This document shows positions 24,702-53,054 of a stretch of DNA of 64,000 nucleotides, in pieces. The notes under the pieces were generated by a model, which was not told the DNA's origin, made no database searches, and worked only from the letters and a program-made list of their open reading frames with translations. The position numbers and the translations under genes were made by a program. The stretch comes from Candidatus Azambacteria bacterium (GTDB lineage: Bacteria; Patescibacteriota; Minisyncoccia; UBA10092). The DNA is taken from assembly GCA_016213445.1 (NCBI GenBank), contig JACRAJ010000001.1:14203-78202 (forward strand), read 5' to 3'. The first letter of the stretch is position 1, and each line of letters begins with the position of its first letter.

Positions 24702-24837
24702 TATTTAAATTTCTAATTTCTAATTATTCTGATTCCTAATCAAACCTCAATTTTTAATGTCTAATTTCTAAATTTTGATCATTGGGATTTGGAATTTGAT
24801 TAGGTCAATTAGAAATTAGGTTAATTAGGTTAATTTC
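24702..24837. repeat. AT-rich heptamer/TTAGAAATT repeat array in the rpoB-rpoC spacer
   Basis: AATTTCTAATTTCTAATT...TCTAATTTCTAAATTTTGATCATTGGGATTTGGAATTTGATTAGGTCAATTAGAAATTAGGTTAATTAGGTTAATT. Shares the ATTGGGATTTG head and TTAGAAATT units with 40161-40222 and 46321-46385. Confidence 0.8.
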
Positions 24838-50112: not shown

Positions 50113-53054
50113 TATTTAACTTTAACGATTCCAATCCAAATATTCCTGTTTTCGATTTTAAAATGGCGGTCAACCAACAAGCCGCCTTTGATATTTCCGG
50201 CAAATTCAAGCATTTTGGCGCCGACTTCGGCATTTAAAATATTTTGCCATTTTTGAACAACTCTTTTTAAAGCGTCATCATCGATTTTAAAATAAATTCT
50301 TATCGAGTCTTTCGGCGTCAGCGATCCGTCTTTCCTCATTCCCTGAATTTGCCGCGCCAGTTCTCTTATCATCCCCTCCTCTTTCAATTCAACGGTGATC
50401 TTCGTATCCAGCTCAAAATCTTTTTTAATATTTTTATCGAAAACAATTTCTTTAACGTTAATTTCGTCTTTAATTAAATTTAAAATTTCTTCATTTTTTG
50501 AAAATTGAAAATTAGAAATTGAAAATTTGAGCGAAGCGAGCGGTTGTCTCACCTTTATTCCGGCTTCCGCCCTTAGCGCCAATCCTTTAGCGGCGATTTC
50601 TCTCGCGAGATTCATCTGCTTCTCGAGTTTTTTATTGATCAGCTTAGCGTTTAATTTCGGATAGTCGGCCAAATGAACGCTTTCCTTATTGTCCAATTCT
50701 CGCCAAATATGCTCTGCCAAAAAAGGCGTGAACGGCGCGGAAAGTTTTGCCGTTTCTTCCAAAACCGTTTTCAAAACCGCCGCCGCGCTTTCGCCGTCGT
50801 CGCCGGAAAAACGTTTTCTCGATCGCCTCAACCACCAGCGCGACAAATCATCGATAAAATCGTCAATCGGCCGCGCCGCTTGAGTCACCTCATATTTTTC
50901 TAAATTGCAACGGACAATTTTTATAGTCTGGTTCAGTCGCGACAAAATCCACTTGTCCAACAAACTTGCCGCTTGTCGCTTGCCGCTTGCCGCTTTTACA
51001 GCATATGTTTTATAAAAAACTAAAACATTCGAAAGCGTCAAAACAAACCGCCGCAACCGATCTTCAACGTCGCGAACGGTAAAACGTTTCGATTCGCCCG
51101 GCGGATTGATGGTGAAAAAATACCACCTCAAAGCGTCAACGCCGTATTTGTCGATTATTTCCCACGGATCGACAATATTGCCTCTGGATTTCGACATCTT
51201 TTCGCCTTTTTCATCCAAAATATGGCCCAAGCAAATCACGTTTTTATACGCCGGACCTTTGCCCATTAAAGCGCCGACGGCATGAAGCGTGTAAAACCAG
51301 CCGCGGGTTTGGTCGATGGCTTCGGAAATAAAATCGGCCGGATAATTAAATTTATCGCTTGCCGCCTGCCGCCTGCCGCCTGCCGCTTGATGGGCCTGGG
51401 CAAACGGCATCGCGCCCGAATCAAACCAGACATCGATTACATCTTTAATCCTTTCCATTTTTCCCGAACACTTTTGGCATTTCAAAACCAAATCATCAAC
51501 ATAGGGCCGATGGAGATCCAATTCGCCTTCATTATTATACGGCCAGTTGTGTTCTCCTTTTTTAAGTTTTTTCGCGGAAAATTTATCCAGCTCCCCAAGC
51601 GAGCCGACAATGCGCTCGCTTTTGCATTTTTCGCATTGCCAAACCGGAAGAGGCGTTCCCCAATATCGTTCCCGGGAAATCGCCCAATCTTTTATTTCGT
51701 TCAGCCACTCGCCGAATCGTCCGTTTTTTATGTGCGAAGGAATCCAATTTATTTTTTTATTGTTGGCGACAAGTTTTTTCTTCAGCTTTTCCATTCTTAT
51801 AAACCAAGAGGATTTGGCGTAATATAAAAGCGCGCTGCGGCAGCGCCAGCAAAAAGGATAATCGTGTTCGTATTTTTTTGACTTAACGAAAGCGCCTGAT
51901 CGCTTCAAATAATCGATTATCAAATTTTCCGCTTCCGAAGATTTGACTTTCAAACCTTTCAAACCTGCGCCGAAATCATCGATGAATTTTCCTTCCAAAT
52001 CGACGGTGTGATATTTGGGAAGCCCCGTTTTCGCGCCGAGATTGAAATCGTCAACGCCGTACATCGGCGCAATATGAACAATGCCGGTCCCTTCCTTGGT
52101 ATTTACAAAATCGGCATTATAAATCTTATGGGAATTTTTCGAATTATTTTTTGAAACGTCAAAAAGCGGTTCGTATTTCAAACCGATAAGATTTTTTCCC
52201 GCGGTGAAAATCGATTTCTTTTTCGGCTCTTCCATATTAATGTCATCCTTGAGGCTCTCGGCGAAAATAAAAATATCGCCGTTATCAAGCTCCAAAATTT
52301 CATAATTTACCTTGGCGCCCGCCGCCAAAGCGGCATTTCCCGGCAGTGTCCACGGCGTTGTCGTCCACGATAAAACATAAGTAGCGCCGGTTGTTGCAAA
52401 ATCGCCGCCTTTGGTTTTTAGTTTCTGCCCCGGCTTTAACTTGAACTTCACGTAAATCGAATTTTCGGAAACTTTTTCATAACCTTGGGCCACTTCATGG
52501 CTTGAAAGCGCCGTGCCGCAGCGCGGGCAGTAAGGCACAACTTTAAAATCTTTATAGAGAAGTTTTTTCTTCCAAACTTGCGACAAAATATGCCACAAAG
52601 ATTCGATATAATGCGGTTCATAGGTGATATATGGATTTTTCAAATCCAGCCAAAAACCGACGCGCTCGGTTAATTTATCCCACTCTTCTTTATACTTCCA
52701 AACGGTTTCCTTGGCTTTCTCATTGAATTTTCCAACGCCGTATTTTTCAATGTCTTTTTTATTTTTAAGCTTCAATTCCTGTTCAACCTGAAGCTCTATC
52801 GGAAGGCCGTGCGTGTCCCATCCCGCTCTGCGGCCGACGTAAAAACCGGCCATTGTTTTGTAGCGGCAAATAAGGTCTTTGTAGACCCTCGTTAAAACAT
52901 GGTGAATTCCGGGCCGGCCGTTGGCCGACGGCGGCCCTTCGTAAAAAACAAATTTCTTCGCTTTGGCGCGATTTTTCAGGCTCTTTTCAAAAATCTGTTC
53001 CCGCTTCCAATATTCCAGAATTTTTTCTTCAGTTTTTGGATTGAACAATTCCAT
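50112..53054 (-). CDS. ileS: Isoleucine--tRNA ligase
   Basis: 980 aa with PSANGRPGIHHVL (HIGH) and KMSKSRGN. Two GC-heptamer inserts and one AT-heptamer insert. Confidence 0.97.
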   Translation of the reverse strand: MELFNPKTEEKILEYWKREQIFEKSLKNRAKAKKFVFYEGPPSANGRPGIHHVLTRVYKDLICRYKTMAGFYVGRRAGWDTHGLPIELQVEQELKLKNKKDIEKYGVGKFNEKAKETVWKYKEEWDKLTERVGFWLDLKNPYITYEPHYIESLWHILSQVWKKKLLYKDFKVVPYCPRCGTALSSHEVAQGYEKVSENSIYVKFKLKPGQKLKTKGGDFATTGATYVLSWTTTPWTLPGNAALAAGAKVNYEILELDNGDIFIFAESLKDDINMEEPKKKSIFTAGKNLIGLKYEPLFDVSKNNSKNSHKIYNADFVNTKEGTGIVHIAPMYGVDDFNLGAKTGLPKYHTVDLEGKFIDDFGAGLKGLKVKSSEAENLIIDYLKRSGAFVKSKKYEHDYPFCWRCRSALLYYAKSSWFIRMEKLKKKLVANNKKINWIPSHIKNGRFGEWLNEIKDWAISRERYWGTPLPVWQCEKCKSERIVGSLGELDKFSAKKLKKGEHNWPYNNEGELDLHRPYVDDLVLKCQKCSGKMERIKDVIDVWFDSGAMPFAQAHQAAGGRRQAASDKFNYPADFISEAIDQTRGWFYTLHAVGALMGKGPAYKNVICLGHILDEKGEKMSKSRGNIVDPWEIIDKYGVDALRWYFFTINPPGESKRFTVRDVEDRLRRFVLTLSNVLVFYKTYAVKAASGKRQAASLLDKWILSRLNQTIKIVRCNLEKYEVTQAARPIDDFIDDLSRWWLRRSRKRFSGDDGESAAAVLKTVLEETAKLSAPFTPFLAEHIWRELDNKESVHLADYPKLNAKLINKKLEKQMNLAREIAAKGLALRAEAGIKVRQPLASLKFSISNFQFSKNEEILNLIKDEINVKEIVFDKNIKKDFELDTKITVELKEEGMIRELARQIQGMRKDGSLTPKDSIRIYFKIDDDALKRVVQKWQNILNAEVGAKMLEFAGNIKGGLLVDRHFKIENRNIWIGIVKVK
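50496..50530. repeat. AT heptamer tract in ileS (GAAAATT GAAAATT AGAAATT GAAAATT)
   Basis: Translated in frame as KFSISNFQFSK. Confidence 0.85.
50963..50998. repeat. GC heptamer tract in ileS
   Basis: AACTTGCC GCTTGTC GCTTGCC GCTTGCC; translated as AASGKRQAASL. Confidence 0.9.
51357..51391. repeat. GC heptamer tract in ileS
   Basis: GCTTGCC + 3x GCCTGCC + GCTTGAT; translated as QAAGGRRQAASDK. Confidence 0.9.

Follow-up and report, generated by a model that had tools for sequence, protein, structure and literature searches.

How does a tandem repeat with a 7-nt unit come to lie both in the spacers between genes and in frame within essential genes for aminoacyl-tRNA synthetases? The question is raised by a 64-kb stretch of DNA (the window) from Candidatus Azambacteria, a tiny groundwater-type bacterium of the candidate phyla radiation (CPR, or Patescibacteria). 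Its sequence comes from a metagenome-assembled genome, and all tract counts given for this host are counts within the window. AT-rich heptamers occur there between genes and inside the genes for leucyl-tRNA synthetase (LeuRS, leuS) and isoleucyl-tRNA synthetase (IleRS, ileS). The best explanation, with a probability of roughly 55%, is a heptanucleotide simple-sequence family of the STRR type that arose in the DNA, was filtered by the reading frame and by what the proteins tolerate, and is rapidly gained and lost in spacers.

Heptamer arrays in spacers and in genes

A preliminary description of this DNA had listed seven AT-heptamer tracts. All were found where it placed them, and Tandem Repeats Finder gives a period of 7 with 82–100% matches, in agreement with our own tract scan. 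The repeat unit is RRAAATT (complement AATTTYY), in head-to-tail 7-nt tandem. The family is indeed dispersed, both intergenic and in frame in leuS and ileS, and the translations reported for the genic copies match. Two of the extents changed: the leuS copy near 40.2 kb is longer than described, and the last spacer ends earlier, at 46375. The spacer copies, described as tandem units, are heptamer-periodic, but the long ones are pairs of inverted arms rather than plain direct arrays. The tracts are as follows, the last four being weaker members of the family.

38871–38902, minus strand: leuS site 1, (AATTTTC)4.3 on the coding strand, read KFSIFNSQFSN, in the variable linker after KRFLDRIY
40161–40222, minus strand: leuS site 2, a 58-nt composite read FLISNFQFLNKSQLPKSQN, which contains ISNFQF (40196–40219)
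50496–50530, minus strand: ileS array of AATTTTC/AATTTCT units, read KFSISNFQFSK, in the variable segment after VRQPL
24702–24837, minus strand: the whole rpoB/rpoC spacer (136 nt), palindromic, with TAATTTC/AGAAATT-type arms
28229–28334, minus strand: AT-heptamer palindrome in the rpoB leader, with a T-rich 5' arm (AATTTTC/AATTTTT units) and an A-rich 3' arm on the sense strand
41851–41896, minus strand: spacer between the methionyl-tRNA synthetase (MetRS) and TatD genes (46 nt), a short degenerate AT-heptamer tract
46275–46375, minus strand: spacer between the prolyl-tRNA synthetase (ProRS) and M16-peptidase genes (101 nt), TAATTTC/AGAAATT units
42809–42838, minus strand: degenerate member in the MetRS gene, with the A-rich strand coding, read IKSKIEN
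57466–57485, minus strand: short (AAAAATC)n variant in the PolX gene, read KNQKSKF
31576–31598, minus strand: short A-rich tract in the leader of the TPR-protein gene, which starts at 31559
24213–24234: weaker family member

Using as criterion three xRAAATT units matched at 19 or more of 21 positions, 13 tracts were found in the window, whereas 30 first-order Markov simulations gave 1.7 on average. When the window was scanned by one and the same test for other short periods, period 7 gave 16 tracts (0.4 expected) and its harmonic 14 gave 9, and there were none at periods 3–6, 8 or 10; period 7 is the sole over-represented short period. It is scarcely credible that the tracts are a chance product of AT-rich codon usage and low complexity, or an artefact of assembly. 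The units and the organism's codons are both AT-rich and some tracts of 17–20 nt are expected by chance, but both counts exceed expectation (13 vs 1.7 and 16 vs 0.4), the latter at period 7 only. The source sequence is metagenome-assembled, but identical sites carry the same arrays in independent assemblies from other samples, and reading frames are intact through every array.

The preliminary description also proposed that two unrelated heptamer families behave in the same way in this genome. A GC-rich family, (GCGRCAR)n, does occur in frame in genes, but in the window it is genic only. Its nine arrays, of about 20–32 nt, are read for example as ATSDKRQATG or AASGKRQAAS; one straddles the PolX start codon, and the IleRS orthologues have no such arrays at the window's positions.

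27275–27303: (GCGRCAR)n array, rpoB
42587–42616: (GCGRCAR)n array, metS
50084–50112: (GCGRCAR)n array, RecO-like gene
50965–50995: (GCGRCAR)n array, ileS
51356–51386: (GCGRCAR)n array, ileS
53344–53374: (GCGRCAR)n array, argS
53913–53944: (GCGRCAR)n array, argS
54130–54158: (GCGRCAR)n array, argS
58690–58709: (GCGRCAR)n array, PolX gene

A scan for (RRAAATT)4 in one genome per species gave at least 120 loci; the window's own genome was not among the matches listed. Among these listed matches, 51 of 120 were from CPR (many classes) and 31 of 120 from Bacteroidota. A separate scan of viral contigs also gave matches, many of those listed being from giant viruses. Because CPR, Bacteroidota and viral contigs all carry it, the unit is generic in AT-rich DNA, and the viral matches, considered as a sign of a vector, are uninformative. 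Arrays lay in long open reading frames (ORFs) in 16 of 53 CPR cases vs 1 of 32 in Bacteroidota. In Bacteroidota (L012, L055, L116 and others among the loci compared, which are labelled L), (GAAAATT)n is mostly found at or just upstream of gene starts, with a strand polarity opposite to that in CPR.

Reading frame and recurrence at protein loops

The TAATTTC form of the unit carries a TAA stop, and the preliminary description suggested that selection had repaired this stop to CAA in the genic copies. TAA is avoided wherever it would be in frame. When the window was taken together with six relatives, T preceded AATTT at none of 10 in-frame positions, at 6 of 10 out-of-frame positions in the same arrays, and at 7 of 17 intergenic positions, with C at 4 of the intergenic 17. 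Repair in the sense proposed is demonstrated only in the TAATTTC-type copy at leuS site 2, which has C or A exactly at the in-frame positions (the would-be TAA is CAA in the window and AAA in the related locus L002). The other two genic copies, leuS site 1 and ileS, have the AATTTTC unit, which is stop-free in any frame. CAA is not peculiar to genic copies, since it is found in spacers too (28229–28252 in the window; 4740–4763 in L001).

The unit variants differ in their stop content. There is no stop in any frame of (AATTTTC)n or (AATTTCC)n; of their complements, (GAAAATT)n has TGA and (GGAAATT)n has no stop. Both strands of (TAATTTC)n and (AAAAATT)n contain stops. Among 117 arrays in other genomes, those of AAAAATT and AGAAATT, units with stops on both strands, were never inside ORFs, and those of GAAAATT and GGAAATT often were. 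The choice of a stop-free variant and strand explains the AATTTTC-type genic copies as well as repair does, and since leuS could not tolerate a stop in frame without killing the cell, it is more economical to speak of selection among stop-free variants. The stop argument holds only as a filter, and the frame filter is real.

The lengths of genic arrays are also restricted. When both families in the window are taken together, 11 genic arrays have 29–32 nt, with none of 25–28 nt and none longer than 32 nt. In 601 kb of the clade, genic period-7 tracts show a trough at 21–28 nt (15 tracts in eight length classes) and a peak at 29–32 nt (23 in four), and non-genic period-7 tracts have no 29–32-nt peak. 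The peak fits a seed of about 1.3 units that grew by three units (21 nt), the one step by which the frame is preserved.

The genic copies had been thought to be insertions relative to orthologues. Arrays in LeuRS were placed by pairwise alignment to the Thermus thermophilus enzyme (1h3n), the AlphaFold2 model of LeuRS from a 22-sequence alignment being too poor for this purpose (mean pLDDT 53, pTM 0.33). The copy at leuS site 2 is an insertion, with a net gain of 11 aa relative to Thermus, and lies in the beta-ribbon preceding the editing domain, before YIEVFTTRPDT. Site 1 is not, as its linker is 11 residues shorter than in the Thermus enzyme, and neither is the ileS copy, where every orthologue has a variable segment of about ten residues.

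Nor are the genic copies private to this genome; LeuRS proteins 73–76% identical to that of the window carry them, an outcome that counts against the preliminary description under the refuting condition it had set itself. The LeuRS genes of L001 and L004 (proteins P0007 and P0044, 76% identical) have the array AAATTTTCAATTTTCAATT[CT][TC]CAATTTTCAAA at the same codons, which in L004 is a perfect array of 4.5 units at site 1. The L002 gene (P0022, 73% identical) has the same 58-nt composite, a site 2 copy that is common to L002 and L003. In a LeuRS of Saccharibacteria (L101), site 1 reads TISNFQFSIS and a third site reads GISNFQFPIS. Given the sharing at 73–76% identity and the same unit type in Saccharibacteria, the genic copies are not recent private insertions. 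A metagenome scan for LeuRS yielded mostly genes 45–59% identical, with only three above 70% and no strain-level relative of the window, and served as a survey of insertion hot spots.

The shared arrays are better conserved as DNA than the genes around them. Where amino acids are identical, the codons are also identical at 9/10, 10/10 and 9/9 positions in the site 1 arrays and at 16/17 in the composite, compared with a synonymous codon identity of 48–57% elsewhere in leuS (Fisher p 0.03 to 0.0001). The excess persists in a comparison restricted to K, F, S, I, N, Q, L and P. Either the arrays have been homogenised or re-acquired, or their DNA or RNA is constrained.

Arrays recur at the same loops with different units and on different strands. 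At the IleRS site, where the window codes with the T-rich strand, L006 has a TAATTTC-type array on the same strand as the AATTTTC-type array of the window. L005 has (AAAAATT)5 there with the opposite, A-rich strand coding and GAA in place of the would-be TAA, and L004 has an (AAAAATT)-type array split by a nested palindrome. Peptides matching translations of four unit variants on either strand were found in 53 of 120 LeuRS and 31 of 120 IleRS orthologues, at few recurrent sites; for IleRS, the DNA just described confirms the match. One and the same site may hold opposite-strand translations (NFQFSIF vs ENxKLKI or KNxKLKI) depending on the lineage, and at the would-be stop any of S, L, W, E, Q, P, D and K is seen. 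LeuRS site A, between NWIGKSEGA.V and VFTTRPDT, contains at least nine unrelated heptamers in ten lineages: AATTTTC, AAATCTC, GCAATTC, GATTCAG, GGTTCAT, AATTTCC, AAAGTCA, GAATTCA and AGATTCC. Period and site recur; the sequence does not. Because unrelated units and opposite strands fill the same LeuRS and IleRS loops, the arrays originated in the DNA, not in the protein. We rejected the idea that the periodicity began in the protein, as with a 7-nt period nothing is repeated within 10 residues and the same sites also carry reverse-complement peptides.

Two further features were seen at these sites. Other recurrent insert peptides at variable sites of the orthologues are FSAKGGSASGG, DFKNPRSRTS, PRLRQGFGRQA, SPYGGSPEGR and ALRDPSGQ. 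At LeuRS site A of L004 (ca. 10700–10790), a 30-nt GC-rich double hairpin (CTCGCTTCGCGAGATCTGGCAAAGCCAGGC) is nested in the AATTTTC array.

Spacer elements and the origin of the arrays

The spacer elements have lengths of 101–136 nt and inverted arms of 21–34 nt, though one of the four spacers in the window has weak arms and one has none. In the rpoB leader, the arms (28230–28263 and 28300–28333) are 34 nt long and 88% complementary, the A-rich arm ends 8 nt before the rpoB ATG (28221), and the leader RNA (28222–28345, sense strand) has a predicted fold of −28.5 kcal/mol (z −6.2). In the rpoB/rpoC spacer, the A-rich arm ends 5 nt before the rpoC ATG and the predicted fold is −27.0 kcal/mol (z −4.9). 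The ProRS/M16 spacer of the window folds weakly (z −1.0), and its counterpart in L001 and L007 is 112 nt long with inverted (AATTTTC)n...(GAAAATT)n arms, folding in L001 at −21.5 kcal/mol (z −3.9). No stable fold was predicted for the MetRS/TatD spacer. The polarity on the mRNA is consistent: a T-rich arm comes first, following the stop codon, and an A-rich arm ends 5–8 nt before the next ATG. In the CPR sample, for which gene calling was crude, arrays within 60 nt upstream of a start were A-rich in sense by 14:5, and those just after a stop were T-rich by 7:0.

At orthologous positions these spacers come and go. The proS and M16 genes overlap by 8 nt (ATGTATAA) in the syntenic loci L004, L005 and L006 and are 101 nt apart in the window, and the units in their spacer are of the TAATTTC type in the window vs the AATTTTC type in L001. 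The MetRS and TatD genes overlap in L001, L006 and L007, with no spacer there vs the 46 nt of the window. The 136-nt element of the window between rpoB and rpoC is matched in L209 by a gap of 3 nt; L208 has a GC-rich hairpin of 83 nt there, L210 a hairpin of 89 nt built of ACGAATA-like units and L211 a different AT-heptamer element of 110 nt. Comparison of the rpoB leaders showed the AT palindrome to be absent from L208, L209 and L210, which retain a promoter-like site and a hairpin (AAAACCCG...CGGGTTTT). The spacers are gains relative to relatives in which the genes abut or overlap, and because relatives have overlaps, 3 nt or other palindromes at these positions, the positions appear to be dispensable landing sites with fast turnover.

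The conserved part of the rpoB leader lies at 28355–28460 (minus strand) in the window, 2879–3069 in L208, 4105–4200 in L209 and 4425–4500 in L210. It consists of a promoter-like TTGAAT...TATAAA followed by a hairpin, AAAACCCGGGCAAGGCGGGGTTTTT, that may be an attenuator. L208 has two copies of a GC-rich palindrome of about 80 nt (fold −48.5 kcal/mol), one between rpoB and rpoC (6454–6536) and the other upstream of rpoB (2880–2955); this is another repeat family at the same landing sites.

Presence or absence of whole spacers, inverted arms and stable hairpins of 100–136 nt would suit mobile DNA. It is possible, though doubtful, that the elements are small non-autonomous elements of the REPIN or MITE (miniature inverted-repeat transposable element) type, moved as single strands by a Y1 (HUH) transposase and landing in spacers and rarely in frame in genes, as Rickettsia palindromic elements do. 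The terminal inverted repeats and the length of the elements fall within the MITE description (about 50–500 bp). The ~50-nt alignment of leuS site 2 (40161–40222) with the right arms of the rpoB/rpoC and ProRS/M16 spacers also fits this reading, and the same stretch aligns with the reverse complement of the left arm of the rpoB/rpoC spacer; the leuS copy is therefore one arm of a spacer element. The composite common to these four copies has the consensus TAATTGGGATTTGnTTAGAAATTAGAnnAATTAGAAATTAGAAATTTAA. Different palindrome families in the rpoB/rpoC spacer of different relatives would likewise be expected of mobile elements. Against this, the arms have a mean column identity of only 62%; it is the period that is conserved rather than the sequence, and a transposon should conserve its ends. 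Comparison of filled and empty sites revealed no clear target duplication or defined termini: none was seen at ProRS/M16, and the AATTTAT found on both sides of the rpoB-leader element is indistinguishable from the heptamer arms. The window contains no autonomous insertion sequence with ends to match those of the elements. The unit is also common in Bacteroidota and giant-virus contigs.

A transposase gene that might serve is present in the window, together with a REP (repetitive extragenic palindrome) family of its own.

16407–17087, minus strand: RAYT-like Y1 (IS200-type) transposase gene, product of 226 aa, Pfam Y1_Tnp 31.6 bits
6778, 11831, 11897, 16373, 17110, 17178, 20962 and 21029: the eight distinct copies of the REP-like hairpin family AATAGGTTTCCGACACCTATTGA
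17090–17121: perfect 16-nt tandem adjoining the start of the RAYT-like gene

The transposase is a distant RAYT relative, scoring 37 bits against NCBIfam REP_Tyr_transpos (cut-off 80 bits), and a PDB sequence search with it gave no match. The AATAGGTTTCCGACACCTATTGA copies flank its gene and include inverted doublets. The adjoining 16-nt tandem can be aligned to the rpoB/rpoC spacer in its 5' part (z 5.4; none of 300 shuffles did as well) and has ATTGACCTAAT in common with the ProRS/M16 spacer. The likeness is limited to a 34-nt module that resembles these two spacers; the GAAAATT-type copies and the leuS composite have no similarity to the flank. The RAYT-like gene is thus a lead, a possible mobiliser of heptamer elements suggested by sequence likeness; the likeness keeps a transposition model alive but does not establish it. 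REP sequences with their RAYT also form inverted doublets that give long spacer hairpins. However, they are extragenic by definition and have a conserved imperfect palindrome of 20–40 nt and a conserved 5' motif, and the heptamer elements have no such palindrome and enter genes. The true REP family of the window is AATAGGTTTCCGACACCTATTGA, which has the conserved palindrome, the extragenic positions and the doublets, and is separate from the heptamers.

The consistent polarity of the arms raises another alternative, that the copies are kept for a function. Spacer hairpins might act on mRNA, in translational coupling, processing or stability, without Shine-Dalgarno pairing, and genic copies might be useful amphipathic beta-hairpin extensions. 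The 16S rRNA has an altered anti-Shine-Dalgarno sequence and leaders are AT-rich with no Shine-Dalgarno sequence; array DNA is conserved far above synonymous sites; and the peptides, which lie in beta-ribbon positions, have polar residues alternating with hydrophobic ones. A function is nevertheless improbable. Close relatives manage with 3 nt between rpoB and rpoC or with overlapping ProRS/M16 and MetRS/TatD genes, others have unrelated palindromes in the same spacer, and one spacer folds no better than shuffled sequences. The same protein loop accepts opposite-strand and unrelated units, and hence unrelated peptides. At gathering thresholds, Rfam matched only rRNA, tmRNA and tRNAs in the window and none of the spacers, and a promoter and terminator scan of 24.5–29 kb gave no convincing site within the elements.

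The simple-sequence reading remains preferred. Arrays would arise in the DNA, in either orientation, by a process with specificity for the 7-base period and none for the unit, most likely reiterated strand slippage. Once formed, whole arms would probably be copied to other sites. Between co-directional genes they would accumulate as inverted arms and give hairpins of 100–136 nt. Inside genes the survivors would be arrays that add whole codons, have no in-frame stop and lie in tolerant beta-hairpin or linker segments of large enzymes, where they would be translated as peptides such as NFQFSIF or NFxFLIS. The analysis demonstrates the repeat, its specificity for period 7, its origin at the DNA level, the presence or absence of orthologous spacers, the frame filter and the recurrence at protein sites; from these patterns we infer that slippage drives the process, that arms are copied from site to site and that they have no function.

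Several observations weigh against it. A slip of one unit is a frameshift, so that stepwise growth in an essential gene should be lethal, and a slip of three units requires an already long array. There is no difference in copy number between L001 and L007 (two assemblies of one species, identical at the spacer), and orthologues do not differ in unit number at LeuRS site 1. The ~50-nt composite found in four copies is more than a microsatellite and points to copying or transposition of a defined element. Near-identical array DNA across species in which synonymous sites are about half diverged could mean constraint on DNA or RNA rather than neutrality, and the arm polarity hints at selection or a strand-specific mechanism. 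As to the engine, slippage must explain growth within essential genes, and transposition must explain why only the period is conserved.

A broader suggestion can be put forward tentatively: CPR bacteria may have a DNA process with a 7-base period, such as polymerase stuttering that survives as three-unit gains of 21 nt, or strand-specific single-strand transposition linked to Y1, that writes segments of 7–10 residues into the same beta-hairpin loops of LeuRS, IleRS, RNA polymerase, ArgRS and MetRS and then keeps the arrays homogeneous at the DNA level. If true, loops would evolve and spacers would be created in reduced genomes by a general process that has not yet been described.

Heptamers are the commonest long simple-sequence repeats in many bacteria, mostly intergenic, of about four units and in some cases inverted, with slippage as the proposed origin (PMC4692102, PMC4679880). 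The heptanucleotide families of cyanobacteria (STRR), Xanthomonas (GGGAATC), Nostoc (GGGGATT) and Beggiatoaceae (TAACTGA) resemble that of the window in their 7-nt tandem, many dispersed loci, excess of period 7 and about four units. They also lie in spacers near the start or stop of co-directional genes, with occasional inverted pairs, and are likewise limited in location by stop codons in one orientation (PMC4692102, PMC4679880). The published GGGAATC, GGGGATT and TAACTGA families differ in being mainly intergenic and under-represented in coding sequence, where the window has long in-frame arrays in leuS and ileS. Also unlike published heptamers are the GC-rich family in frame in rpoB, metS, argS and ileS and the recurrence at the same loops across CPR. 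G-quadruplexes cannot explain the four-unit preference here, as the unit is AT-rich.

The colonisation of genes recalls, by analogy, the Rickettsia palindromic repeats, which, in the summary available in PMC10969869 (citing Ogata et al. 2000), have colonised housekeeping genes in frame, with the peptide at positions compatible with the fold. As that summary describes them, they seem similar in being short palindromic repeats of a small genome that occupy both spacers and, in frame, unrelated housekeeping genes. They are about 100–150 bp long, with conserved family sequences, and are inserted whole, whereas genic copies in the window have 30–58 nt, represent one arm or a bare array and are heptamer-periodic. 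The heptamers further differ in having both orientations, many unit variants and peptides that vary with unit and strand, rather than a whole element with a conserved peptide, and no relation in sequence between the two is expected.

The cyanobacterial small dispersed repeats of Elhai and co-workers (2008) are said to be of about 20–30 nt, in spacers and genes, with nested insertions and without heptamer periodicity. Among the papers searched, there was no account of heptamer repeats or repeat-derived insertions in CPR/Patescibacteria proteins.

In bacteria, heptamer repeats have been on record for decades, yet neither a mechanism nor a role has gained acceptance, and they were believed to avoid coding sequence. 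Distinctive here are arrays in essential genes of a minimal genome, in the same loops across a radiation, on both strands and with many unrelated units. They are a natural experiment in which the reading frame serves as a ruler, and the clustering of genic arrays at one unit plus three constrains how arrays grow. The AT-rich unit shows that G-quadruplexes are not required for the widespread preference for about four units. The arrays bear on the origin of small lineage-specific insertions in CPR proteins and of spacers between formerly overlapping genes, and they can mislead gene callers, alignments and phylogenies of aminoacyl-tRNA synthetases and RpoB.

Gene neighbourhood and other sequence features

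LeuRS, IleRS and RpoB of the window match, with 100% identity, proteins from a 280-kb contig of an NCBI Candidatus Azambacteria bacterium. From 21 to 54 kb, almost all genes are on the minus strand.

21093–24701, minus strand: rpoC
24838–28221, minus strand: rpoB, ATG at 28221
28947–31559, minus strand: TPR-protein gene
between the TPR-protein gene and leuS: gene for an S74-peptidase protein of 1779 aa
38402–40918, minus strand: leuS
near 41850: true start of the TatD gene
41897–43345, minus strand: metS
between metS and the M16-peptidase gene: AI-2E transporter gene
45009–46274, minus strand: M16-peptidase gene
46376–47728, minus strand: proS, with the ProRS stop codon at 46376–46378
between proS and ileS: DUF11 protein gene, then the RecO-like gene
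50112–53054, minus strand: ileS, product of 980 aa
53059–54717, minus strand: argS

The 16S rRNA gene is at 19254–20749 (minus strand), with its 3' end near 19254 and the tail GGAACATCTCCTTTCT. With this tail, the anti-Shine-Dalgarno core is UCUCC, not CCUCC. The leaders of nearly all genes are AT-rich and contain no Shine-Dalgarno sequence.

Related IleRS proteins are mostly of 1140–1200 aa with an inserted His_Phos_1 (phosphoglycerate-mutase-like) domain (P0126–P0142 and many others; loci L004 1–2038, L005 10001–13441, L006 6707–10189), and the 980-aa IleRS of the window is without it. Among related LeuRS proteins, some carry a fused NUDIX domain. An ORF of 162–183 aa with PaaX_M and weak Cas2-like matches (L002 93–644, L004 12537–13058, L005 4481–4969, L006 13019–13540) is found at varying places in otherwise syntenic relatives and looks mobile; no counterpart of it was seen in the window. 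Finally, two adjoining arrays of period 11 are located at 11118–11207, beside an ORF at 10892–11185: a perfect array of TGCGGCCATCT with 2.7 copies, and one of TGGCCGCATCA with 4.8 copies at 69%.

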